DNA of 64,000 nt from an uncultured Collinsella sp. (GTDB lineage: Bacteria; Actinomycetota; Coriobacteriia; Coriobacteriales; Coriobacteriaceae): the NCBI GenBank assembly GCA_900547125.1, contig URFU01000001.1, positions 7,731 through 71,730 of the forward strand. Direction: 5' to 3'. The number at the start of each line of letters is the position of its first letter. Within the stretch, counting starts at the first letter, position 1. Shown here in pieces: positions 5,320 to 64,000 of the stretch. The position numbers were made by a program, and so were the translations under genes. Under the pieces are notes generated by a model. That model did not search any database and had not been told where the DNA came from. It saw only the letters and a list, made by a program, of their open reading frames with translations.

Positions 5320-5358
5320 AAGGAGTATCCCAAACTGCCGGCAGAAAAGGAACGTCCC
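5320..5358. repeat. 39-bp direct repeat, left copy, flanking the ATPase unit.
   Basis: aaggagtatcccaaactgccggcagaaaaggaacgtccc. It is identical to 6831-6869 apart from one a/g mismatch. Confidence 0.85.
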
Positions 5359-5374
5359 CAGGTGCCGACCTAAA

Positions 5375-5466
5375 CCCACACATTATTCGATGGAAAAACG
5401 TGGATGCCTCCCACATTATTCGATGGAAAAACGTGGTTTACTCCCACATTTTTCGATGGAAAGACC
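5375..5466. repeat. Tandem direct repeats (~34 bp, 2.7 copies) immediately upstream of the ATPase gene.
   Basis: cccacattattcgatggaaaaacgtgg[atgcct] / cccacattattcgatggaaaaacgtgg[tttact] / cccacatttttcgatggaaagacc. Confidence 0.8.
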
Positions 5467-5505
5467 AAAACGATCTTATACTAACCATGATAGTTAGGAG
5501 GCAGT

Positions 5506-6807
5506 ATGCAGCGACAGCTAATGGACGAACTCATCGCTTGGAAATCTAGGGCAAACCGCAAGCCCCTCCTGCTTAAGGGGGCCCGCCAGACGGGAAAAAC
5601 CTGGCTTCTCAACGAATTCGCAGGGCGGCAGTATCAAAACGTCATCCGTTTTGACTTTATGCTCGAACCGGGCGCACGCTCGCTGTTCGACGGAAGCCTT
5701 GACCCCAAACGCATCATCTCCCAGATAGAGCTCCTGCGCGGCCAGACCATAACGCCGACAGACACGCTCATCATCTTCGACGAAATCCAAGAGGCACCGC
5801 GTGGCATCACCTCGCTCAAATACTTCAACGAGCTGGCGCCGGAATACCATATCGTGGCAGCCGGCTCCTATATGGGGCTCGCGCTCCGACGCGAAAACGA
5901 GTCGTTCCCCGTCGGCAAGATCGACCAGCTCACCATGCGCCCCATGGGGTTTGTCGAGTTCGTTCGTGCCGTCGATGGCGATCCGCTCGCAGATGCCATC
6001 CTTGCCGCAGACATGGACCTGCTCGCAAACGTTTCCGAAAAGCTCGAGCGCCTGCTCAAGGAATACCTCGTTGTCGGTGGCATGCCAGAAGTTGTCTCCG
6101 CTTTCGCCGCCTCCCACGATTTCATCGAGGCCCGCAGGCTTCAGCAGCAAATCATCGAAGCTTATGAATCCGATTTTGGCAAGCATGCGCCAGCCCGCAT
6201 CGTCGAGCGCATGAGGCTGGTTTGGAAATCCCTTCCCGGCCAGCTCGCAAAGGAAAACAAGAAGTTCGTCTACGGCGCGCTTCGTCCCGGGGCGCGCGCA
6301 CGCGATTTTGAGGAAAGCCTCCAGTGGCTCATGGACTATGGAATCGTTCATAAGGTACCACGTGTTTCCGCCCTAAGAGCACCGCTCACAAGCTACGAGG
6401 ATCTCTCGGGCTTCAAGCTGTTCTGCATCGACACCGGCATCCTCGGAGCACTCTCCGGCCTCACGCCAGCCATTGTTCTGAACGGGCCCGCTGTTTTTAC
6501 GGAGTTCAAAGGCTCGCTGACCGAGCAATACGTCGCACAGGAGCTTTTGCTCCAAGGCAAAACTCCCGCGTATTGGTCATCCTCCTCCGGCAATGCAGAG
6601 ACTGACTTTGCCATCGACCATGCGGGGACCGTGCTTCCGCTCGAAGTCAAGGCGGCAGAGAACCTCAAAGCAAAGAGCCTGAGGATTGCCTGCGAGAAGT
6701 TCAAGCTCGAGCGCTGCGTGAGAACATCGTTAGCGGCATATAGAGACGAGGGCACGCTCGTCAACATTCCGCTCTGGGAGATTGGGCAAATCGACAAGCT
6801 GGCGTAG
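5506..6807 (+). CDS. AAA+ ATPase with C-terminal DUF4143 (AAA_14 family, COG1373-like).
   Basis: Walker A LKGARQTGKTW and Walker B LIIFDEIQ. The size and C-terminal domain are typical of the 'ATP-binding protein' family often found in accessory contexts. RBS AGGAGG. Confidence 0.8.
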   Translation: MQRQLMDELIAWKSRANRKPLLLKGARQTGKTWLLNEFAGRQYQNVIRFDFMLEPGARSLFDGSLDPKRIISQIELLRGQTITPTDTLIIFDEIQEAPRGITSLKYFNELAPEYHIVAAGSYMGLALRRENESFPVGKIDQLTMRPMGFVEFVRAVDGDPLADAILAADMDLLANVSEKLERLLKEYLVVGGMPEVVSAFAASHDFIEARRLQQQIIEAYESDFGKHAPARIVERMRLVWKSLPGQLAKENKKFVYGALRPGARARDFEESLQWLMDYGIVHKVPRVSALRAPLTSYEDLSGFKLFCIDTGILGALSGLTPAIVLNGPAVFTEFKGSLTEQYVAQELLLQGKTPAYWSSSSGNAETDFAIDHAGTVLPLEVKAAENLKAKSLRIACEKFKLERCVRTSLAAYRDEGTLVNIPLWEIGQIDKLA

Positions 6808-6830: not shown

Positions 6831-6869
6831 AAGGAGTGTCCCAAACTGCCGGCAGAAAAGGAACGTCCC
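6831..6869. repeat. 39-bp direct repeat, right copy.
   Basis: aaggagtgtcccaaactgccggcagaaaaggaacgtccc, lying 1511 bp from the left copy. Confidence 0.85.
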
Positions 6870-7064
6870 TATCTGCCGCATTCCCGAAGCAAGGCAACGC
6901 CGATGTTTTGGCAACGGCAGCGAGCGGGCCGCACTTTAGACAAGGTGACATGAAACGAAAGGGCGCTGACCTTCTGGTCGCGCCCTTGAAGTTGAACGTC
7001 AGATTGTACAGGTGCGGCCCGCTCAGCGTCGGCCGGTTACGGCGTTTGGTAAAACCGCGTAACT

Positions 7065-9410: not shown

Positions 9411-10424
9411 TTACTCGGACTGCCCGCCCTTCTTGGCATGCTTGGACGGAGCACCCAGAAAGCGGCCCGTCAAATAGTTCGCCGGCCCGGAAATATCAAT
9501 CCCCAGCAGTGTGTGCCCCAGCCACAAAAACGCCGCGAGCACCAGCAATGGGATCACGCATGAGGTCACGATCATCACGATGACGCCTTCGATGAGATCG
9601 GTCACTTGCCGCACAATTTCATCGGTCATCTGCTTGGCGCCGCTGGTCACCGACGTGACGAGACCCGAGGCACCGTCGGCAAGCTGCTCAAGCACGTTCT
9701 TGGACTCTGTGGACTCGGTCTTTTTCTTGCTTGTTTTGGAGCTATCGCTATCTGCCGCGCTCGCAGCGTCGGTCGCCTTTTGCTCGGCCGCCTCGATGCT
9801 AACGCGATACGTTTCGTCGACCTTTTGCGACACCCATACGCTTGCAGGCACCAACGCCATGCCAATTATGGCGACCACCAGCACACGCGTTGCCACGCGG
9901 CGAATGACCGTGCTCGTACTCCAGCGCCCGTGAATGCCGAGCGACACCGCAAAGAGTACCAACGCAAACGGGATTAAGATGCCCAAGCCAACCGACCACA
10001 AAATCGTGAGCAAATATTTCTCTAGGTAGAGCACGGCAAGCACGATACCAAGGTTGCCTGAAAGCTGCGCGAGCTGCTCGGCAACTGGCGTTCCCGTATC
10101 GCCCGGCAGCGCAGTGATACCCGCAGATAGGGCGACGCACGAGGTCGTGAGCGCCAAAACATTGCCCTTCTTTTGATCGATGACCTCGATGGTGGAGTCC
10201 CAGGTCTTGGTATCGGCAAAATGCGGACGAGCTACAAAGCCCGACAACAGCGCCAGTACCACGAGCGCAACGATAAAGCCAATCTGCAGTTTTTTGTTTG
10301 CGCACACGACATCGGACAGGCTGGGCTGCAGCTCGGTTACCGTCGTGTGCTCGGTTATCTGGACAGGACGCCCATGAGTCATCTCGTGCGCGTCTCCCTT
10401 TTGAATCAATCCGTTGCCCGGCAT
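9411..10424 (-). CDS. Hypothetical polytopic membrane protein.
   Basis: Several hydrophobic helices and a K/S/T-rich loop. No recognisable family. Start uncertain. Confidence 0.55.
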   Translation of the reverse strand: MPGNGLIQKGDAHEMTHGRPVQITEHTTVTELQPSLSDVVCANKKLQIGFIVALVVLALLSGFVARPHFADTKTWDSTIEVIDQKKGNVLALTTSCVALSAGITALPGDTGTPVAEQLAQLSGNLGIVLAVLYLEKYLLTILWSVGLGILIPFALVLFAVSLGIHGRWSTSTVIRRVATRVLVVAIIGMALVPASVWVSQKVDETYRVSIEAAEQKATDAASAADSDSSKTSKKKTESTESKNVLEQLADGASGLVTSVTSGAKQMTDEIVRQVTDLIEGVIVMIVTSCVIPLLVLAAFLWLGHTLLGIDISGPANYLTGRFLGAPSKHAKKGGQSE

Positions 10425-10541
10425 TTGGATACCTCCTTATTCCGGCCTGTATTGCGGATGGAAGTATACCCACCCAGCGATAAACCGAACGGCACGACGA
10501 ACGGAGCGCGCCAAGACTGTCCCCAATGACTGTCTCGGGAT

Positions 10542-10612
10542 GAGTTGCGGTGGAATAGGGATTGTTTTGCGCCCGCCGGCCCCTATTCAGCCCCTATTTC
10601 ACCGCAACTTGG
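10542..10612. repeat. Palindromic element, family B (AGTTGCGGTG[G/A]AATAGGGA … TCCCTATTTCACCGCAACT).
   Basis: Arms gagttgcggtggaatagggattg and cccctatttcaccgcaacttgg with a ~25-nt spacer. Two more copies lie at 60801 and 61939. Confidence 0.7.
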
Positions 10613-10619
10613 AGGAGAA

Positions 10620-10660
10620 CAGAAAAAGCCCTGTCGCGGGTAGCGGCAGGGCTTTTGGAA
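10620..10660 (-). terminator. Rho-independent terminator for lacF.
   Basis: Minus-strand hairpin aaagccctgccgctacccgcgacagggcttt followed by ttctgttctc. Confidence 0.6.
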
Positions 10661-10683: not shown

Positions 10684-11022
10684 TTAGGCGAGCTTGGCCT
10701 CGAGCTCGGCGATGCGCTTGTAGGCATCGATGGTAAAGCGGGTCTGCTTCTCCAGGATCATAGTGGTCATGAGAGTGTCCTGAGCGTGAGCCATGATGAA
10801 GGTCATCTCCATCTCGCCACCGCCGGCCTCCTGCGAAAGCAGCTTGGTCTGCGTGTCGTGGGCACCGATGAGCGCATCGCTGGCATCCTTGTGCAGCTGC
10901 TCGGCCTTCTCAAAATCACCCTCGCGAGCAGCATCGAGCGCTGCAAGCAGATCGGTCTGGGCGTCACCTGCGTATGCGACGATCTCGAATCCAACCATCG
11001 AGATTTCTTCTTTGGTTGCCAT
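10684..11022 (-). CDS. lacF: PTS lactose/cellobiose-family IIA component.
   Basis: 112 aa, all-helical LacF/CelC-like: MATKEEISMVGFEIVAYAGDA…HAQDTLMTTM. Confidence 0.85.
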   Translation of the reverse strand: MATKEEISMVGFEIVAYAGDAQTDLLAALDAAREGDFEKAEQLHKDASDALIGAHDTQTKLLSQEAGGGEMEMTFIMAHAQDTLMTTMILEKQTRFTIDAYKRIAELEAKLA

Positions 11023-15990: not shown

Positions 15991-16140
15991 CGTTTGTCTC
16001 GATCTGTAACATCTAGCCGAGTTTTTTGGTCCTAGCTGTTACAGATTGAGACGAACAGGATTGCTCTTTCCGAAGAATCTAAATCTGTAACACGTAGCCC
16101 GCTTTTGACCGTCTACCTGTTACAAATCGAGACAAACGGA
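15991..16140. repeat. Palindromic hairpin element family A, two tandem units (A-loop and B-loop types).
   Basis: Unit 1 is cgtttgtctcgatctgtaaca[tctagccgagttttttggtcctagc]tgttacagattgagacgaacag. Unit 2 is aatctgtaaca[cgtagcccgcttttgaccgtctacc]tgttacaaatcgagacaaacg. Confidence 0.85.
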
Positions 16141-20993: not shown

Positions 20994-21064
20994 CCTGTTC
21001 ATCTCAATCTGTAACATCTAGCCGAGTTTTCGGGTCCCACCTGTTACAGATTGAGATGAACAGG
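20994..21064. repeat. Palindromic hairpin element family A, single unit.
   Basis: cctgttcatctcaatctgtaaca[tctagccgagttttcgggtcccacc]tgttacagattgagatgaacagg. The arms are perfect over 23 bp. Confidence 0.85.
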
Positions 21065-25725: not shown

Positions 25726-25870
25726 CGTTTGTCTCGATCTGTAACATCTAGCCAAGTATTTCGGCCCTAGCTGTTACAGATCAAGACAAACAGAGCGCCC
25801 GAGCAGAAATATCTCAATCTGTAACACGTAGCCCACTTTTAACCGTCTACCTGTTACAGATCAAGACAAT
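25726..25870. repeat. Palindromic hairpin element family A, two tandem units.
   Basis: ccgtttgtctcgatctgtaaca[tctagccaagtatttcggccctagc]tgttacagatcaagacaaacag, then atctcaatctgtaaca[cgtagcccacttttaaccgtctacc]tgttacagatcaagacaat. Confidence 0.85.
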
Positions 25871-25921
25871 AAGATAGTCAAATCCAAACTTTCCAAGCAG
25901 TTATGAAGCATGGTTTCTAGT

Positions 25922-25996
25922 TTTCGGTATCACGAACATGCTTTCGGTGTCATTTAATGGTATTATGATATCGAAAGTATGTTCGTGATACCGAAA
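25922..25996. promoter_or_regulatory. Dyad-symmetric promoter/operator of the Fic gene.
   Basis: 18-bp perfect inverted repeat tttcggtatcacgaacat / atgttcgtgataccgaaa. It brackets a nested imperfect inverted repeat and a TATTAT(GAT) -10-like box. GAAAGGAG RBS follows. Confidence 0.55.
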
Positions 25997-26004
25997 GGAG
26001 CCGC

Positions 26005-31545: not shown

Positions 31546-31556
31546 TGTTCTTTTTC

Positions 31557-31700
31557 TTTTGTCTCGATCTGTAACACGTAGCCGAGTTTTTAAGTCCTAA
31601 CCGTTACAGATCGAGACAAACAAGGTAGGCCCCGCCGAATTGTCTCAATCTGTAACATCTGGTTGGTGGTTTCACCCCTACCTGTTACAGGTTGAGACGA
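31557..31700. repeat. Palindromic hairpin element family A, two tandem units.
   Basis: ttttgtctcgatctgtaaca[cgtagccgagtttttaagtcctaacc]gttacagatcgagacaaac, then ttgtctcaatctgtaaca[tctggttggtggtttcacccctacc]tgttacaggttgagacga. Confidence 0.85.
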
Positions 31701-35563: not shown

Positions 35564-35760
35564 CTAAATCCCCTCTCGGATCGTTTCTTTGGCGGCTACT
35601 CGGCAAACGCATTACCGACGCTGTTGCCACCCACATGCGTCTCGACCAGGGTAAGGTCGGGATTGAACACGACAACGTCGGCGTCGCGCCCCGACATAAT
35701 GCTATCGCACTTGTCGTCGACATGAGCTAGCAACCGATGCCGGGGCCGCAGCACAAGCTC

Positions 35761-36696
35761 CTACAGCTCGGTCACGACAACGCCGTTGTAAACCTCGTCC
35801 CAACGATCCATAACCAAGTGGCCAGTCATGGGATCCATGGCATTGAGCTTGCCGCAGGTGTTGGCGGTACGCAGCACCGTCTCGTCGTCGGCGCCGGCAG
35901 CAATCGCATGTGCGAAACCGGCAATGGTCGAATCGCCAGAGCCCGTAGCGTTAACGGCGGGGATATCGGGGGTCTTGGCGCGGAACGCACGGCCGTTATG
36001 GAAACCAACGGAGCCGGCAGCGCCCATGGATACGACGACCCAGGGGATATCGGAGAAGCGGGCGTCAGAGGCGAGCGCGGAACGGAGCTCGTCCACATCG
36101 TCGGTGGTAAAGCTCGTGCCCAGAAGGCCGTTAATTTCGGTCAGGTTAGGCTTAACCAGCTCAGGCTTGACCTTGGACTTGAGCGCAGCCTCGAGCGAGG
36201 CGCCCGAGGTATCGAGCAGCACCTTGGCGCCGGCGTTCTCGGCAATGCCCGTGATCTTGGCATAGTAGTCTGCCTCGACACCGCGGGGCAGAGAACCCGA
36301 AATGGTGACAACGTCGGCCTTGCCCGCAAGCTCAGTAAATTTGGCGGTAAAGGCATCGAGCTCCTCGGGGGCAATTGTCGGGCCGCTCTCGAGCAGCTCG
36401 GTCTGGTTGCCGGCGTGGAGAATGTTGAGGCAAATTCGAGTCTCGCCCTTGATGGGCACAAAGTCGTTGTTAATACCGTTGGCGTCCATGAGCTCAGCCA
36501 TGTAGGCGCCCATGTGGCCGCCGAGTAGACCGGTTGCCACAACGTCGTCGCCCAGCTGACCCAGCACACGGGCCACGTTGAGGCCCTTGCCGCCGGCGGT
36601 CTTTTCGGGCGTCACGCGGTTGACGTCGTCGATAATGAGCTCATCGAGCTGATAGCGCGTATCGACAGACGGGTTCATCGTAACGGTGAGGATCAT
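35761..36696 (-). CDS. lacC: Tagatose-6-phosphate kinase, second paralog.
   Basis: 311 aa, ~85% identical to 7065..8000 (MILTVTMNPSVDTRYQLDELIIDDVNRV…). Confidence 0.9.
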   Translation of the reverse strand: MILTVTMNPSVDTRYQLDELIIDDVNRVTPEKTAGGKGLNVARVLGQLGDDVVATGLLGGHMGAYMAELMDANGINNDFVPIKGETRICLNILHAGNQTELLESGPTIAPEELDAFTAKFTELAGKADVVTISGSLPRGVEADYYAKITGIAENAGAKVLLDTSGASLEAALKSKVKPELVKPNLTEINGLLGTSFTTDDVDELRSALASDARFSDIPWVVVSMGAAGSVGFHNGRAFRAKTPDIPAVNATGSGDSTIAGFAHAIAAGADDETVLRTANTCGKLNAMDPMTGHLVMDRWDEVYNGVVVTEL

Positions 36697-36755
36697 TTTT
36701 AGCTCCTTATCTCGCAGGCTCCTTGTGCCTCGCGATACGAGTCGACAAAACGGAA

Positions 36756-37637
36756 TTACAGAATCTCAATCGTGAACGAGCGTACGATGGTCTCCTTGGG
36801 CTTGGCGACAAGGCAGCCGCGCTTATGCTCAAGTACGTCGTCCTCATCGGAGCAGGTCGAGAGGCCGCCCCAGGGTTCAACTGCAACAAAATCGCCCTCG
36901 GGCTTACTCCACACAATGAGATACGGGAAGCCCTCAAAGCTCAGGCGGACGCCCTTGTCCTCCCCCTTCTTAGAAAGCGTAACCTGACGGCTCTCGAGCA
37001 CGTCAAAGATGGTCTCCGCAAAATCGAAGAGCTCGTGCGACAGGGGCAGCGTCTTTCCCACCATGGGGTTCTTGGAGCGGTTTGCCACGTCAATCAAGCC
37101 AGTCGAGGGAACGGCGGTGCAGAGCTCCGCAGCCTCGTCTTTCTCAAAGCGCAACTCGTAGTCCGTATAGGCCTCGCCCTCATCGAGCGGACACCTAAAG
37201 CCGGGATGACCGCCGATAAAGAACGGCATGTCCTCGGTCCCCTCGTTGGTCACCTCATAGGAGACGCGCACGGCGGTATCCTCGAGCGTATAACGAGCGA
37301 CAAGCTTAAACGGGTACGGATAATCGCTCAGCAGCGCGGCGTTATCCTCCGAAGCCAGGCACATCGCCAGCTCGTTCTCGCCTTGGCTCAGCAGCTTCCA
37401 CTCCTGTTTGCGCGCAAACCCGTGGCGAGCGAGCTTTACATGATGCCCGGCAAACGTCATGGCGCTGTTGTCCCGCAAGCCTGCGCAAATCGGGAAGCAA
37501 ATCGGTGCCTGGCCAGACCACACGGCGGGATCGCCCTGCCACAGATACTCGCGACCTCCGGCCTCAATCGAGGTAAACGAACCGCCAGCCGTGGACACCT
37601 TAATAGAAATCGAATCGTTGGAGAGAGCGTATTCCAT
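36756..37637 (-). CDS. Aldose 1-epimerase-family protein (LacX-like).
   Basis: MEYALSNDSISIKVSTAGGSFTSIEAGGREYLWQGDPAVW… is typical of the LacX/YihR family. Start at cat 37635-37637 with an AAAGGA RBS. The long N-terminal extension in the ORF track is rejected. Confidence 0.75.
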   Translation of the reverse strand: MEYALSNDSISIKVSTAGGSFTSIEAGGREYLWQGDPAVWSGQAPICFPICAGLRDNSAMTFAGHHVKLARHGFARKQEWKLLSQGENELAMCLASEDNAALLSDYPYPFKLVARYTLEDTAVRVSYEVTNEGTEDMPFFIGGHPGFRCPLDEGEAYTDYELRFEKDEAAELCTAVPSTGLIDVANRSKNPMVGKTLPLSHELFDFAETIFDVLESRQVTLSKKGEDKGVRLSFEGFPYLIVWSKPEGDFVAVEPWGGLSTCSDEDDVLEHKRGCLVAKPKETIVRSFTIEIL

Positions 37638-54418: not shown

Positions 54419-54770
54419 CAAGCTGCCCCTCACCATGTCCACTACCCTGCCTTCTGTGTCGTATACAATCCGTGCGTTGCGCGGAATATCAGGTTGTTCC
54501 CACCAGCTGACCTGGTATTTGACCCCACACTTGCGCACCGGGGTGTTTGCTCGGGAGGCCGCAGCCACCTTCACGACTGACCCGCTCGCCCGCGAGGCGG
54601 TATTGCCCCAAAGAAAGTAGAACGGACGGTGCGGCTTACATCTAGGACGCGCCATGATCGCGCCGCGCGCACGCGGTCGCTTACGTGGATCCCTTTGACC
54701 GCGTCTGTCTTGGACTAGGACGGGCATTTCGTCCGTCCGCAACCACAGCCTGGTAGGAACGAAGCGCATT
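54419..54770 (-). promoter_or_regulatory. Long (~340 nt) structured 5' leader of the SBP gene with a TATAAT -10 box and several stable hairpins.
   Basis: Minus-strand TATAAT at ~54763-54768. Hairpins ggacggacgaaatgcccgtcc and ggcgcgtcctagatg…. A T-box-like GAAGGUGGCUGCGGCC sits ~120 nt upstream of the start. Confidence 0.4.
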
Positions 54771-54917
54771 ATAGCTAAGTTCAAGCTAAAGTTTAAGGTT
54801 AGGGGCGTCATTCGCATCGCGAGTACAGATTTTGCGGGTCGGAGCGGACCATTCGTGCCCCTATGAAGCCCGGAGCTTCCCTACGGGGAGCTCCGGGGCA
54901 CCCGTCTCAGGGTGCCG

Positions 54918-55134
54918 TGTGCAAAAAACGGCAAATATGAGTACTGTTACCAATTTAGTAGCAGCGTATTACCGCCTCACGAGCCCTTTTTGAGTTCCGC
55001 ACAGCCTGCTTGGCGCCAAGATATTCCACATTCGTTTATTATCTCTTCGCTGAATCCAGATTATCGGCCCAAGTTTCTTTGTTTTTGCTGTCACTAATCT
55101 AGTAACAGTACTCATATTTGCCGTTTTTTGCACA
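54918..55134. repeat. 217-bp element with 33-bp perfect terminal inverted repeats (MITE-like).
   Basis: tgtgcaaaaaacggcaaatatgagtactgttac (54918-54950) and gtaacagtactcatatttgccgttttttgcaca (55102-55134). The interior is AT-richer, with a second imperfect inverted repeat (tagtagcagc / gctgtcactaatcta). Confidence 0.75.
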
Positions 55135-55169
55135 GAGCATATAAACAGACCCCCTATAAAGCCATAGTT

Positions 55170-60014: not shown

Positions 60015-60698
60015 TTACTCGGCCTCCTTAGCAAGCGCGCCGACGACGGCGTCTTGCGGAATGTCGAGACCGTACGCGCGAATCTGCTCGACCGTCTTCT
60101 CGAAGACTTCCTCGATGGTCGCGGTAGCGTCGATGAGCTTTACGCGGGCGGGTTCCTCGGCAGCAATGGCGCAAAAGCCCTGGTAGACACGCTCTTGGAA
60201 TGCCACTCCCTTCGCCTCCATGCGGTCCGCCGCGCCACGGGCTGCCATGCGCAGCGCCGCCTGCTCGGGTGTGATGTGGTAGACGAGCGTGAGCGCCGGA
60301 TGCGTACCGGCGACAGCCAGGTTGTTGGCATCGCGTACCATCTGACGGTCGAGGCCATCGGCAAACGCCTGGTAGCAGGTCGTGGAATCGTAGAAGCGAT
60401 CGCACAGGACTACCTCGCCGGCCGCGAGGGCGGGAGCTATGACCTCGTGCACCAACTGGGCGCGCGCCGCCTCGTAGAGCAGCAACTCGCAGGTGTCTCC
60501 CATCGCCGTATTGGCGGGGTCGAGCAGCAGAGCACGGATCTTTTCGCTGATGGCGGTGCCGCCCGGCTCGCGCAGGCTCACAACCTGGTAGCCAGCGAGT
60601 TCGAGCGCGCGGGCAAGCAGACGCGCCTGCGTGGACTTGCCGGCACCATCGACGCCCTCGAGCGTGATAAAGCTATGTTGAGCGGGCTCAAAAGCCAT
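60015..60698 (-). CDS. tmk: Thymidylate kinase.
   Basis: P-loop EGVDGAGKSTQ, DRF motif. Confidence 0.9.
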   Translation of the reverse strand: MAFEPAQHSFITLEGVDGAGKSTQARLLARALELAGYQVVSLREPGGTAISEKIRALLLDPANTAMGDTCELLLYEAARAQLVHEVIAPALAAGEVVLCDRFYDSTTCYQAFADGLDRQMVRDANNLAVAGTHPALTLVYHITPEQAALRMAARGAADRMEAKGVAFQERVYQGFCAIAAEEPARVKLIDATATIEEVFEKTVEQIRAYGLDIPQDAVVGALAKEAE

Positions 60699-60800
60699 GA
60701 GCGCAGCCCCTTCCTACAAGGCGCGTAAATGCAGATATACCAACCAAGCCATGATACCCCAGTGCTCGGCGCGTCCCCAATGGCTAAAGGTGTCTTTCCA

Positions 60801-60869
60801 AAGTTGCGGTGAAATAGGGACTGATTGAAGCTCTGAGACCGCCAAACAGTCCCTATTTCACCGCAACTT
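60801..60869. repeat. Palindromic element family B, copy 2.
   Basis: aagttgcggtgaaatagggactg[attgaagctctgagaccgccaaa]cagtccctatttcaccgcaactt. The arms are perfect over 23 bp. Confidence 0.85.
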
Positions 60870-60937
60870 ATGATGGGGACTTTTGGACGCTGGGTATAAT
60901 CGTCGTATTGATTTGAAATGTGGCGAAAGGAGTGGCA

Positions 60938-61921
60938 ATGTCTCGGTATTGCGCCTCGTGCGGCAAGCTTCTTGCAGATGATGCCAAGTTCTGCACCTCG
61001 TGCGGTGCACCCGTTGAGCAGACAACCGCAAGCAATGGCCAACCCACGTTTGAGAAGACCGGCTCCCTCGATACGCCGCAAGCTAAGCCGGACGACCCCC
61101 TCGCCTATCGCCCCGACCCCGCCGCCGGCCCTGCAGCGGTCGAAACGACGCAGCGCATACCCGTCGCGGACACCCCGCCCCAACAGCAACCGGCGTCTAC
61201 ATACGCGTCTGGTTCACCGCAGGCCCCCGCCGCAAAAAAGAGCGCTACCAGGGCGCTTGTCGCCGTTATCGTTGTGCTGTTGGCAATCATCATCGCCTTG
61301 GTCATCTTTTTTGTGATCAAGCCGTTCGACAACTCCGCTACGCAGACGACTGCCGAGGTAGCTAAGCTGCACCATGACGTCGACGACGATGATCTAAAGC
61401 CTCTCGGCAATCCCAACAGCCTGTACGACGATGATGACGATGACGACGAGGATGGCGGCGAAGCAAGCCTCTCCGAACAGAACCTCTACCGTCGCCTGAG
61501 TGAATACTACGACCTGCTGGAAGATCTCGATAGCCAGGTCCGTGCCTGCGCAGAGACGTTTAATGGCAGCTATCTGGAAGAGGATCGTACCACCCGTCAA
61601 AATCTCGCTGACGTCGCCGAGCGCACGGAGGACACCATCGAGCAGTATTACGACATCGTCGAGGACCTGGACGTCCCGACGAGCTCCAAGAACTACAGCT
61701 CCTGGAAAGACATCGTTGCCCTGTATGACGACCTGGACCACCGCATTGACGCGATCTGCGATGCCTGGGAGATCAGCCTGAAGTACGCAAAGCCCGCGGA
61801 CCACAAGAATGAGATCGTGGCGCCGCTGTCACGCGACAACGTGGCGGGCACCAATGACAATAAGTACCGCCTAGACTTTGAGGACCGTTATCCCGGCGCC
61901 AAGCCCGTCGAGGTGAACTAA
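60938..61921 (+). CDS. Zinc-ribbon-domain membrane-anchored protein (hypothetical).
   Basis: N-terminal CASCGK…CTSCGA zinc ribbon, a Pro/Gln-rich linker, a TM helix, then an acidic (D-run) extracytoplasmic domain. ATG at 60938 with an AAAGGAG RBS; the ORF track uses an upstream GTG. Confidence 0.6.
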   Translation: MSRYCASCGKLLADDAKFCTSCGAPVEQTTASNGQPTFEKTGSLDTPQAKPDDPLAYRPDPAAGPAAVETTQRIPVADTPPQQQPASTYASGSPQAPAAKKSATRALVAVIVVLLAIIIALVIFFVIKPFDNSATQTTAEVAKLHHDVDDDDLKPLGNPNSLYDDDDDDDEDGGEASLSEQNLYRRLSEYYDLLEDLDSQVRACAETFNGSYLEEDRTTRQNLADVAERTEDTIEQYYDIVEDLDVPTSSKNYSSWKDIVALYDDLDHRIDAICDAWEISLKYAKPADHKNEIVAPLSRDNVAGTNDNKYRLDFEDRYPGAKPVEVN

Positions 61922-61938
61922 TCCCAACAACTGATCAA

Positions 61939-62007
61939 AACTTGCGGTGAAATAGGGATTAGTTAGGACTTTTGCCAGCAAAAACAGTCCCTATTTCACC
62001 GCAACTT
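61939..62007. repeat. Palindromic element family B, copy 3.
   Basis: aacttgcggtgaaatagggatt[agttaggacttttgccagcaaaaa]cagtccctatttcaccgcaactt. Confidence 0.85.
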
Positions 62008-62072
62008 AGAAGTGGGGCCGGGCTCGCATTTGCATTTGCGCGCCCGGCCCCGCCGTGTCTATATGTGCTCGG

Positions 62073-64000
62073 TTACTTGTCGGCGGCCGCCTTCTTGGTG
62101 GTCGTCTTTTTCGCGGCAGTCTTCTTGGCGGTCGACTTCTTGGCGGTCGAAGTCTTCTTGGCTGCCGTGGTCTTCTTCGTCGTGCTCGCCTTGGTCGCAG
62201 CCTTGCGGCCGCGGGCGGGCTTCTTCTCCTTGGTCGGGCAATCCATGTTGACGCAGATACGCCACGGACCGCGCGCCGTGTTGACCACCACGATGGGGGC
62301 GCCGCACTCGGGGCAGGTCTCGCCCGTCGCCTCGAGCTTGCCGCGCGCCGGCAGCGGATAGCTCACGCCGCAGTCATCGTAGTTGGTGCAGCGGATAAAG
62401 CGCTTGCCGCTCTTCTCGCTCTTGTGTGCAATCAGATCACCATGGCGTCCGGCCTCGGCGCACACCTTGCACTCGCCCACCTTAAGGTCGGGCTCGTAGT
62501 TGGTGGGGCACGTCGGGTTCACGCAGATCTCGAAGGCCTTCTGGCGGAACGGCTGGCACTTAATGCGCGGTGCACCGCATTCGGGGCACACGGCCGCCTC
62601 GCCCTCGAGCGGGCTCACCTTGACGCCGCTCGGCACCGGATAGGTCACGTCGCAGTCGGGCCAGCCCATGCAGCCGATAAAGCTGCCGCGGGTCTTGGCG
62701 CTCGTCTTCATAACCAAGTCCTTGCCGCACTTGGGGCAGGCGCCCACGCGCGCATCGGCCGTGACGGCGTCGCTGATGGCGTCGCCCAGCTCCTGCGTAT
62801 GCTTGAGCAGCTCGTCGAGCACGCCGGCCAGCAGCGCGCGCGAGTGCGTCACGACATGCTCTTCGGTGTCCTCGCCGCGCTCCACACGGGTCATATCGCC
62901 ATCGAGCTCGCTGGTCATATCGGGGCTCGTGATGCGCGGGGCAAACTGCGTCAGTGCGTCGATGATGGCGATGCCCAGCTGACTCGGCTCCACGGGATCA
63001 TTTTTGAGATAGCGCACGGCATACAGGCGCTCGATGATGCTCGCGCGCGTTGACTTGGTACCCAGGCCGCGCTTTTCCATCTCCTGCACGAGCTTGCCCT
63101 GGCTGTAGCGCGCGGGCGGCTCGGTCTGCTTGGCCTCGAGCTTAATGTCGAACACGTCGACCGTATCGCCCTGCTCAAGCGGCGGCATCTGCTCGTCGCG
63201 CTTGAGTCCATACGGGTACGCCTCACGGAAGCCGGGGGTCACGAGCACGTCGCCCGAGGCCACGAACGGCTCGCCGTTCACGTCGAGCTCGAGCTTGGTG
63301 TTCTCGATGGTCGCGGGACCCATGAGCGTTGCCAGGAAGCGACGGGCGATGAGGTCGTAGAGCTTGCGCTGGCCACCGTCGAGCGTGGACGGATCGCCCT
63401 CGCCCGTAGGATAGATAGGCGGGTGGTCGGTGGTCTCGACCTTGCCGCGCGTGGGCTTCATGGGACCGGCGAGCACCTTTTTGCATACGGGCGCCAGCGC
63501 CGGGTTGATCTTTGCCAGGTCGCTCACCACGGCGCCCAGATCGAGCGTCGCAGGGTACACGGTATTGTCGACACGCGGGTAGCTGATGAGACCGGCCATG
63601 TAGAGGGACTCGGCGATGCGCATGGTACGCGCAGGTGAGATGCCCTCGGCTGCGGCGGCAGCCTGCAGCGAGGTGGTCGCAAACGGCGTGGGCGGCTGCT
63701 GCTTGCGCGAACGCTTGGTCACCGCGGCGACGGTTGCCGTCGCAACGCCGTCGACATGGCCGTACGCCGCCTCAGCAGCATCCTTGTCGGTAAAGCGCGC
63801 CGTCTTGTGCGCAATCTTAAAGCGGTCGTCCTCGGCAGCACCCTGTGCGGCGCCCATGCCGCGGATCTGCCAATAGTCCTCGGGCACAAACGCCATGCGC
63901 TCGCGCTCGCGCTCGACCACCAGGGCAAGCGTCGGCGTCTGCACACGGCCGGCAGAGCGCACGTTACCAAAGCCGCCAAACTTGGCGAGCGTCAGGTAGC
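62073..64000 (-). CDS. topA: DNA topoisomerase I. The N-terminus lies beyond the window edge.
   Basis: Topo IA core motifs, C-terminal Zn-ribbon repeats (CPKCG…, CPECG…) and a lysine-rich tail (KKTTAAKKTSTAKK…) typical of actinobacterial TopA. The frame is open past 64000. Confidence 0.9.
   Translation of the reverse strand, partial: YLTLAKFGGFGNVRSAGRVQTPTLALVVERERERMAFVPEDYWQIRGMGAAQGAAEDDRFKIAHKTARFTDKDAAEAAYGHVDGVATATVAAVTKRSRKQQPPTPFATTSLQAAAAAEGISPARTMRIAESLYMAGLISYPRVDNTVYPATLDLGAVVSDLAKINPALAPVCKKVLAGPMKPTRGKVETTDHPPIYPTGEGDPSTLDGGQRKLYDLIARRFLATLMGPATIENTKLELDVNGEPFVASGDVLVTPGFREAYPYGLKRDEQMPPLEQGDTVDVFDIKLEAKQTEPPARYSQGKLVQEMEKRGLGTKSTRASIIERLYAVRYLKNDPVEPSQLGIAIIDALTQFAPRITSPDMTSELDGDMTRVERGEDTEEHVVTHSRALLAGVLDELLKHTQELGDAISDAVTADARVGACPKCGKDLVMKTSAKTRGSFIGCMGWPDCDVTYPVPSGVKVSPLEGEAAVCPECGAPRIKCQPFRQKAFEICVNPTCPTNYEPDLKVGECKVCAEAGRHGDLIAHKSEKSGKRFIRCTNYDDCGVSYPLPARGKLEATGETCPECGAPIVVVNTARGPWRICVNMDCPTKEKKPARGRKAATKASTTKKTTAAKKTSTAKKSTAKKTAAKKTTTKKAAADK

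Follow-up and report, generated by a model that had tools for sequence, protein, structure and literature searches.

In Enterobacteria, transcribed intergenic regions carry ERIC (or IRU) elements, imperfect palindromes of ~127 bp that occur in low to moderate copy number and are highly conserved in sequence. The TRIT ("Tuberculosis Rho-independent terminator") of Mycobacterium is found only in that genus, as 147 palindromic copies that are conserved in sequence and keep to a narrow range of positions at stop codons (Gardner et al., 2011; PMC3152330). REPs are GC-rich palindromes of ~20-40 nt, interrupted by a few (2-4) bases, that have a 5' GT(A/G)G head and usually more than 100 copies, and a RAYT gene is flanked by two inverted REPs (PMC2817692); REPs, PUs, BIMEs, and the RAYT transposases are described in PMC2817692, PMC3333891, and PMC1525189. 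Here, we describe E, a 69-nt palindrome that occurs three times in a 64,000-nt stretch of DNA from an uncultured Collinsella sp. (assembly GCA_900547125.1, contig URFU01000001.1; this whole stretch is hereafter the window), where two copies flank a zinc-ribbon gene. E is a previously undescribed, Collinsella-wide palindrome family. We suggest, with a probability of roughly 0.55, that it is a new family of the REP, ERIC, and TRIT kind, i.e., of interspersed gene-end palindromes, and that it likeliest acts as a bidirectional 3'-end hairpin read by some protein, with a role as an insertion sequence (IS) target and recombination hotspot as a side effect. Judged by its behavior, E appears closest to TRIT. 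Next come REP/BIME, which it resembles as an IS target and in recombination, and ERIC, which it resembles in size, in its few copies, and in conservation.

Like TRIT, E is confined to one genus of Actinobacteria, is palindromic and so presents the same face to either side, is conserved in both sequence and structure, keeps a very narrow distance from the nearest stop codon, and belongs to the range of tens to hundreds of copies per genome. The two differ in exact placement and number: TRIT is centered ~8 nt inside the coding sequence and has 147 copies, whereas E starts 2-25 nt after the stop codon and has ~30. E also has a long site-specific loop, and neither family has been proved to terminate transcription. 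Compared by description, and with no claim of homology, E would belong to the functional class of TRIT-like gene-end hairpins. With REPs it shares an extragenic position at gene 3' ends. REPs are targeted by IS3-family (IS1397 and ISKpn1) and IS110-family (IS621 and ISPpu9) elements; E is likewise targeted by an IS3-family element, and a related palindrome, family C, by an IS110-family element. Both REPs and E lie at recombination junctions, near strain-specific DNA, and in mosaics with other short motifs. An earlier note on this DNA had offered REP-like structural elements as one explanation of the repeats, and in a broad sense this is borne out, as E is multi-copy, extragenic, palindromic, genus-wide, and located at gene 3' ends. 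In its build, however, E is unlike a REP: it has 69 nt, 23-bp arms, a ~23-nt loop, and ~30 copies, and an alignment of 55 copies contains no GTAG or GTGG head at either end. A tblastn search with an approximate IS200 TnpA against all loci (8-kb pieces), a weak test for RAYT, returned nothing better than an E-value of 1.8. E and ERIC are alike in being highly conserved imperfect palindromes longer than REPs, although their phyla differ. To our knowledge, ERIC has no sequence similarity to E, and a hypervariable center of fixed length has not been reported for it.

The repeats are present where the earlier note had placed them. The arm AGTTGCGGTGAAATAGGGA, allowing at most 3 mismatches, occurs six times in the window as three inverted pairs, against 0.02 expected in shuffles, and a covariance model built from 55 relatives finds exactly three copies of E in the 64 kb (70-85 bits; E-values of ~1e-19 to 1e-23; Table 1). 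Perfect 23-bp arms had been attributed to both copies next to the zinc-ribbon gene. This is true of copy 1, but in copy 2, 3 of the 23 positions of the left arm, AACTTGCGGTGAAATAGGGATTA, do not match the complement of the right arm. The third copy, placed at 10542-10612, does exist and has the diverged left arm that had been described, but it ends at 10610 and its right arm is diverged too, with one change per arm (GTGG on the left and GGGGC on the right). The coordinates of the open reading frame (ORF) between copies 1 and 2 were correct, and its zinc ribbon was confirmed with Pfam. The element itself was underestimated: the palindrome at copy 1 extends well beyond the 69 nt (Table 1), and the spacer from stop codon to hairpin is conserved as well. 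The predicted hairpin energies of the 69-mers are -42.6, -31.7, and -37.3 kcal/mol for copies 1, 2, and 3, respectively, and regions around E copies fold far better than shuffles on both strands (z = -5 to -10). Copy 1 has orthologs at many loci (L049, L058, L092, L096, L097, L109, and L201-L220; L numbers are our labels for loci), and its ortholog in L070 is split by an IS3-family element. Copy 2 begins 17 nt past the zinc-ribbon stop codon; in relatives, its site holds a compensated E variant (L049), the different palindrome family C (L109), or family C split by an IS110-family element (L058). Orthologs of copy 3 are found in L008, L013, L041, L068, L080, and L104.

The 55 diverse copies align without gaps, with almost invariant arms that start AAGTTGCGG and a variable center of 17-23 nt. 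Stem pairs 2-23 are ~95% paired across these copies, whereas ~35% of cells in the loop interior are paired, which is about chance by our estimate; we therefore rejected the idea that the loop was generated by fold-back. Copying of the loop from the flank was also considered and set aside, a single 7-nt coincidence being the sole sign of it. Between sites, arms are 90% identical and loops 44%. Between orthologs, arms are 98.3% and loops 95.5% identical, compared with 91.8% for the flanks, which are partly coding. Since orthologous copies are more alike than their flanks and loops are site-specific, each copy is old, has its own loop, and has been kept steadier than its surroundings. Indeed, E occupies the same chromosomal sites across many Collinsella species. 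The loop is ~23 nt long and the total length of E is fixed, while the GC content ranges from 42% to 57%. Conservation continues outside the hairpin: the 15-19 nt between stop codon and hairpin are conserved family-wide and read outward CTTATGAGGGGATGG and then the stop codon, with an outward flank consensus of CTTATGAGGGG(AT)GG followed by the reverse complement of the stop codon. The E unit thus spans the stop codon through the hairpin, and consists of the 69-nt hairpin plus a conserved gene-side spacer of ~15 nt, ~95-100 nt in total. One subfamily is compensated, with GGGAC changed to GTTCC in one arm and GTCCC changed to GGAAC in the other; the remaining double-sided changes are a few single pairs. 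The arm start AAGTTGCGGT resembles the Haemophilus uptake signal sequence, AAGTGCGGT. We rejected a DNA uptake sequence nonetheless, as ~30 copies of a 69-nt unit are not the pattern of an uptake signal.

We scanned one genome per species with TTGCGGTGRAATAGGG and retrieved at least 120 stretches, nearly all of them from Collinsella. A few matches carry other names, and at least one of these is to a contig with 94% identity to the window, which indicates mis-binning. Counting as complete any arm pair with up to 3 mismatches per arm, we found at least 141 elements in at least 120 loci, 137 of the 141 with an identical core length of 63 nt. Clustering of their flanks gave at least 32 distinct chromosomal sites, and a capture-recapture estimate (Chao1) gave ~34. 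An 899,693-bp C. aerofaciens replicon in PLSDB has 24 BLAST places that correspond to 12 elements, each palindrome being matched on both strands; this density of ~1 per 75 kb on the 0.9-Mb replicon translates to ~30 copies per genome. The genome-wide count of copies and their contexts that the earlier note had proposed thus yields ~30 copies per genome at gene 3' ends, and its worry that only the window copies might exist is clearly dispelled, as copies are genus-wide. The replicon, "plasmid 6" of C. aerofaciens TSDC17.2-1.1 (NZ_OY725717.1; L246/L247), carries recA, ftsK, rny, topA, tmk, and holB, and is a chromosome piece, not a plasmid. E is not found on phage contigs, the 15 IMG/VR matches being single-arm chance matches on contigs of unrelated GC content. 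We therefore rejected carriage by phages or plasmids, as the viral matches are single-arm and the sole "plasmid" match is that chromosome piece. E has no match in Rfam 15, in which generic microRNA-precursor models come nearest, with 20-30 bits versus cut-offs of 45-105. Nor did one targeted full-text search for Collinsella and palindromic repeats between genes turn up a description of E. The repeat content of Collinsella, a genus that is abundant and extremely micro-diverse in the human gut, was not found described in either of these two sources.

We then determined gene context with a simple gene caller based on GC content at third codon positions (GC3), which was checked on the window. All 32 sites are intergenic; 16 lie between convergent genes, 13 between tandem genes, and only one, window copy 1, between divergent genes (probability of at most one divergent site in 32 = 0.0012). 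The distance to the nearest inward-facing stop codon has a median of ~16 nt per site and is at most 24 nt in 20 of 32 sites. Between some convergent pairs, E stands alone between both stop codons, with spacers of 12/12 and 9/8 nt. Transcription leaving either flanking gene would place a very stable hairpin of 23-26 bp at the 3' end of the message, and E would work from both sides because it is palindromic. Such a hairpin may be a 3'-end barrier that protects against 3' exonucleases, serves as a processing site, or takes part in factor-assisted termination or insulation. Near-invariant arms combined with a free loop of fixed length suggest a protein that reads the arms, which might be a host factor or the enzyme that once spread E. 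As DNA, E is a preferred landing site for IS3-family elements, in its loop, and a preferred breakpoint for gain, loss, and rearrangement of accessory genes. By marking ~30 gene ends per genome, E offers a handle on transcript ends in Coriobacteriia, in parallel with TRIT in mycobacteria.

Several copies of E have been entered by ISs. Among the unpartnered arms, those of 7 loci adjoin an intruding sequence that starts with GGGGGTGCGGAC or GGGGATGCGGAC. An IS3-family element whose inverted repeats start with GGGGGTGCGGAC cuts E in the loop in L023, L037, L070, L071, and L116, and in three of these (L023, L070, and L116) the cut falls at the TTT/AAA junction of stem and loop. One end of this element encodes an integrase C terminus (rve_2), and the other a short OrfA-like start. 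A group II intron inside E was considered for the start GTGCG and rejected, as no intron model matched and an IS3-type rve_2 is encoded. In L009 and L113, an inverted repeat of the GGGGGTGCGGAC type lies inside a variant E and no transposase follows; that in L009 may be a remnant, a solo end, or a derived MITE (miniature inverted-repeat transposable element). Family C, which replaces E at the copy-2 site, is an inverted pair of U units and has 11 of 16 arm positions in common with E, including the TAGGGAC core; an IS110-family element (DEDD_Tnp_IS110 and Transposase_20) interrupts it in L058. IS1397, ISKpn1, and IS621 behave alike at REPs (PMC1525189). The inverted repeats of the IS3-family element are GGGGGTGCGGACAGAAAGTTGGACCG and GGGGGTGCGGACGATTTCTTGGACCG, and the element ends many metagenome contigs. 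Metagenome assemblies break at E, several IS-disrupted copies being located at contig ends. The arms of E and the U, W, and U2 motifs have a TWGGGAC-like core in common. In the W hairpin, the loop, TTTGGGACGGGGCTTTT, is conserved and the stem varies yet stays complementary (GGTAGCTAA/TTAGCTACC or AGTCAA/TTGACT); this combination of a covarying stem with a conserved loop suggests an independent structured element. W hairpins are found near many E copies and at the junction on the far side of several inserted segments (Table 1).

The earlier note had also raised a recombination hotspot. For the family as a whole this is supported by indel boundaries, by pairs of E around variable DNA, and by a junction between two E copies, but it does not extend to the zinc-ribbon gene, which is immobile. 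Across all pairs of orthologous loci, a large segment present in one and absent from the other ends at most 20 nt from an E in 15 of 16 pairwise cases and in 7 of 8 distinct events (probability 8e-5 versus an expectation of 20%). Several sites hold a single E in some genomes and two E bracketing an extra, lower-GC segment in others (Table 1); at site 11, L102 and L117 have the empty version. The DUF4143 gene of site 11 is also present in the window, at 87% nucleotide identity and in another chromosomal context, where it is bounded by direct U-unit repeats (AAGGARYGTCCC...CTGCCGGCAG) rather than E; in most other Collinsella, the AAA_14 + DUF4143 gene is at a different site between two E. Just upstream of the window gene lie three tandem units of ~33 nt that are partly palindromic (CCCACATTATTCGATGGAAAAACGTGG) and kept with the gene in other contexts, and these may be an operator or iteron array. 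At site 8, a second DUF4143 gene (450 aa) has been inserted, with a stop codon on one side and the E on the other; in three samples, this gene is joined to the site-17 E. We also found contigs that lead from the zinc-ribbon gene across the copy-2 E (site 17) and then, exactly at the end of the right arm, into the cassette side of site 8 (Table 1). We rejected the reading of these as a cassette inserted at copy 2, since they are a joint between two E sites; the contigs imply that two E copies served as breakpoints of an inversion or a translocation in some strains. How alike the E copies flanking a cargo are is specific to the genome (L050 versus L079), which fits gene conversion better than duplication at insertion. 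Hence, we rejected duplication of E on cargo insertion, the two E of site 11 also being unrelated in loop and subfamily. At site 28, for which L043 and L055 form the single filled/empty pair, ~30 nt are replaced by ~110 nt with no clean direct repeat. E attracts IS3-family elements, as its related palindrome attracts an IS110-family element, and bounds most of the gene gains and losses seen, and this helps explain, and could help predict, the entry of strain-specific genes, including defense genes.

Around copies 1 and 2, the gene order is ricT/PSP1, holB, and tmk (all minus), the zinc-ribbon gene (plus), and topA (minus). The zinc-ribbon protein has 2,135 homologs at E-values of at most 1e-5, the best 120 of which are 89-99% identical. 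The zinc-ribbon gene lies between tmk and topA in every relative examined, and the order tmk-E-gene-E-topA, looked up for two of its homologs, is intact at 20 of 20 places. The gene is still there in L061, where copy 1 is missing, and in L109 and L058, where copy 2 is replaced by family C. Hence, the "mobilised cassette" of the earlier note is not supported for this gene, which stays between tmk and topA with or without the repeats, and we rejected the gene as a cassette on the strength of this steady position. The zinc-ribbon gene is a stable Collinsella resident, whereas the surrounding repeats come and go; both copies merely fill intergenic spacers flanking a conserved gene, with no mobilizing of it. 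For annotation, the lesson is that a pair of repeats around a gene does not make that gene a mobile cassette. In one Collinsella lineage (L061, 3534-4661), a class-A beta-lactamase-like gene (Pfam Beta-lactamase2, E-value 5e-65) has been inserted where copy 1 would lie, with tmk on one side and the zinc-ribbon gene on the other, and the N-terminal half of the zinc-ribbon protein of L061 has diverged.

A number of observations weigh against a 3'-end hairpin of this kind. An intrinsic terminator has a U-rich tract of 7-9 nt after its GC-rich stem; the window copies have at most 3 T in the first 8 nt after the stem, and because no U tract follows, E is not a canonical intrinsic terminator. A simple terminator scan did not call it either. 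Mycobacterial RNA polymerase is reported to need a U tract (PMC3993855). A canonical terminator lies beside several copies (window copy 3 and sites 3, 16, and 28), and with good terminators next to it E is at least sometimes redundant for termination. Copy 1 of the window precedes both members of a divergent gene pair, a position in which a 3'-end role makes no sense. We also considered selection at the RNA level through wobble asymmetry and rejected it, as G:U and A:C mismatches are not biased to the sense strand (16.1 versus 12.1); the stem alignment contains no covariation past one propagated subfamily, so that neither result supports selection on the RNA stem as such. Gene conversion among copies or protein-DNA binding could explain the conservation of E instead. 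In addition, the gene context depends on a crude GC3-based caller, the loci that entered the hotspot analysis were all fetched for containing an E, and we infer the RNA-level roles of E throughout from sequence.

Correia elements of Neisseria are short intergenic MITEs with terminal inverted repeats of ~25 bp and a TA target duplication; they are present in hundreds of near-identical copies and can affect transcript ends. E might similarly be a non-autonomous transposable element, with arms that are terminal inverted repeats for a transposase encoded elsewhere and a gene-end bias that reflects tolerated insertions, and this we regard as unlikely. Its inverted 23-bp ends, 90% identical between sites, enclose a freely varying interior, in keeping with general MITE features (PMC3184786), and dozens of copies are dispersed. 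Presence is polymorphic at site 28, at copy 1 (absent from L061), and at copy 2 (another family in L109), and the compensated subfamily recurs at several sites, a pattern that the spread of a variant master copy would produce. But the one filled/empty pair has no clean target-site duplication, no loop is common to two different sites, so there is no sign of recent copying, and orthologous copies are conserved above background instead of decaying. Among the 120 loci there is no longer element with E ends; each arm is either tightly paired with a partner at a distance of 47 nt or interrupted by an unrelated IS. Copy number is low (~30 per genome), and phage contigs lack copies. E departs from Correia elements as well: its one filled/empty pair lacks a clean duplication, recent copies are not seen, and the 120 loci sampled yielded no parent IS. 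We think it very unlikely that E is instead a DNA site for a chromosome-organizing or topology protein, e.g., gyrase or a nucleoid protein, where convergent transcription piles up supercoils, as proposed for the BIMEs of E. coli. Invariant arms, a free spacer of fixed length, and the lack of a strand bias in mismatches are hallmarks of a symmetric DNA site bound by a protein; the ~30 sites in a genome are enriched in spacers of convergent gene pairs; and REPs bind gyrase, Pol I, and IHF (PMC1525189). On the other hand, no protein was identified, half-sites of 23 bp are unusually long, and the compensated GTTCC/GGAAC subfamily argues that arm pairing matters. A small RNA gene or cis-regulatory RNA of a described family is the least plausible to us, and highly improbable: the hairpin is indeed very stable, but its scores stay below the gathering threshold of every Rfam family, covariation does not go beyond sequence conservation, the two strands of the element are symmetric, and a scan of window 60500-62300, around copies 1 and 2, revealed no promoter-like site. 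Rfam models at both gathering and permissive thresholds gave nothing relevant, and we rejected a known RNA family.

Integron attC sites are imperfect palindromes with conserved outer boxes (R'' RYYYAAC ... R' GTTRRRY) and a variable center that lie right after the stop codon of the upstream ORF. E resembles them as an imperfect palindrome with a conserved outer part and variable center that follows an ORF stop codon and is tied to single accessory genes. It is therefore conceivable, though quite unlikely, that E, together with the U and W motifs, is a portable recombination site at which single-gene cassettes are exchanged by a dedicated recombinase or by short-homology recombination, an integron-like or pdif-module-like arrangement of the Coriobacteriia. 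E pairs do bracket single accessory genes (TOTE AEP-helicase, HipA-like, DUF4143 ATPase, and zinc-ribbon/transmembrane genes; Table 1) that are absent from single-E relatives, the two DUF4143 genes (433 and 450 aa) each occur in more than one setting, indel boundaries concentrate at E, and E lies at ORF 3' ends as attC does. The core, however, does not match: E reads 5'-GTTGCGG ... CCGCAAC-3' on both strands, a polarity opposite to attC, with 5 of 7 positions of the consensus, and it has GTT/AAC at the outer stem end and a fixed length, unlike the cassette-specific length of attC. In the loci examined, we saw no intI and no arrays, E pairs being at most 0.3-3.7 kb apart. We rejected E as an attC site for its wrong core polarity and the lack of arrays. 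Nor does any integrase or recombinase gene recur beside E, which is single and dispersed. Junctions vary, falling inside the spacer, beside a U unit, or at an arm end, which looks like opportunistic recombination; the joint of sites 17 and 8 is a rearrangement between two E rather than a cassette hop; the genome-specific likeness of flanking E fits gene conversion; and the zinc-ribbon gene of the window is immobile. That E, the U units, family C, and W are the sites of a hairpin-based system in which some enzyme inserts, removes, and moves single accessory or defense genes, such as those for the TOTE primase-helicase and for HipA-like, DUF4143 ATPase-nuclease-like, and zinc-ribbon membrane proteins, between gene-end palindromes seems to us similarly doubtful. 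If true, such an exchange system would be functionally analogous to integron attC cassettes or the pdif modules of Acinetobacter; we know of no integrons in the phylum of the Coriobacteriia.

Table 1. Positions of E copies, neighboring genes, and associated features. Plain coordinates are those of the window; L-prefixed coordinates are those of the named locus. AEP, archaeo-eukaryotic primase; HTH, helix-turn-helix; PTS, phosphotransferase system
Feature	Position	Strand	Remarks
E copy 1	60801..60869		69 nt; perfect 23-bp arms AAGTTGCGGTGAAATAGGGACTG / CAGTCCCTATTTCACCGCAACTT; 23-nt loop; divergent tmk / zinc-ribbon intergenic region
Extended imperfect palindrome around copy 1	60776..60894		approximate limits; 59-nt arms, 75% complementary; fold z = -8 to -10
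Outer motifs of the extended palindrome	60773-60785; 60875		GTCCCCAATGGCT; GGGGAC
Motif GTCCCCAATGRCT, fuller form TAGTCRTTGGGGACRKTCTT	60773-60785; 10519-10531		beside copies 1 and 3; also beside E in L012, L016, and L068
E copy 2	61939..62007		69 nt; imperfect left arm; convergent zinc-ribbon / topA spacer
GC-rich hairpin	62012..62053		between copy 2 and topA stop; terminator-like, without clear T tract
E copy 3	10542..10610		between PTS IIA gene terminator and start of membrane-protein gene
Canonical intrinsic terminator of PTS IIA gene	10624..10656	minus	stem and T run; directly beside copy 3
PTS IIA gene	10684-11022	minus
Membrane-protein gene	9411-10424	minus
Zinc-ribbon gene	60938..61921	plus	327 aa; N-terminal zinc ribbon (PF13240), transmembrane segment, C-terminal domain
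tmk (dTMP kinase)	60015..60698	minus	left neighbor; start codon 102 nt from copy 1
topA (DNA topoisomerase I)	62073..63962	minus	right neighbor, cut by window end; stop 65 nt from copy 2
DUF4143 gene of the window	5506-6807
Direct U-unit repeats bounding it	5320-5375; 6831-6885
Three tandem ~33-nt units	5379-5470
Site 0 bracketed segment			273 nt, apparently non-coding
Site 1 bracketed segment			TOTE-type AEP primase-helicase, 3.5 kb
Site 6 bracketed segment			HTH + HipA_C-like gene
Site 11 bracketed segment			AAA_14 + DUF4143 ATPase, 433 aa
Site 16 bracketed segment			second zinc-ribbon/transmembrane protein
Site-17/site-8 joint	L226, L230, L202, L208		three independent samples: ERR13988455, SRR31096301, ERR14075290
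Family C palindrome at copy-2 site	L109:4740-4830; L058:2790-2830		arms GGCAGTTAGGGACGTTCC; loop AAACTGCCGGCAGAAA
W hairpins	L066:1880-1954, L112:5290-5349, L074:2770-2800, L054:2630-2666, L004, L017, L107		E flanks
Palindromes with arms GTCTCGATCTGTAACA	15991-16135; 20996-21059; 25726-25869; 31556-31700
AT-rich palindrome TTTCGGTATCACGAACATGCTTTCGGTGTCAT	25919-25999		32-nt arms, 91% complementary
raiA RNA (RF03072)	54498-54758	minus	149.5 bits
Inverted repeat just upstream of raiA	54913-55139		53-nt arms, 87% complementary

The window holds further palindromes and repeats. The first palindrome family, with arms GTCTCGATCTGTAACA, is built like E, with ~64 nt, arms of ~20 bp, and a variable loop; its members occur singly or in pairs 81 nt apart, between paralogous PTS/beta-glucosidase blocks spaced 4.7-5.8 kb. 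Outside E, the E model matches best, at 19 bits, to the AT-rich palindrome at 25919-25999, which probably has no relation to E. In an Rfam 15 scan of the window, only raiA and one tRNA passed the gathering threshold. Finally, at window position ~8015, the relatives L012, L013, L041, and L104 have 1-1.8 kb more than the window does; this DNA is 75-78% identical to window 35760-37593 and is a paralogous gene copy that is absent at ~8015 here.

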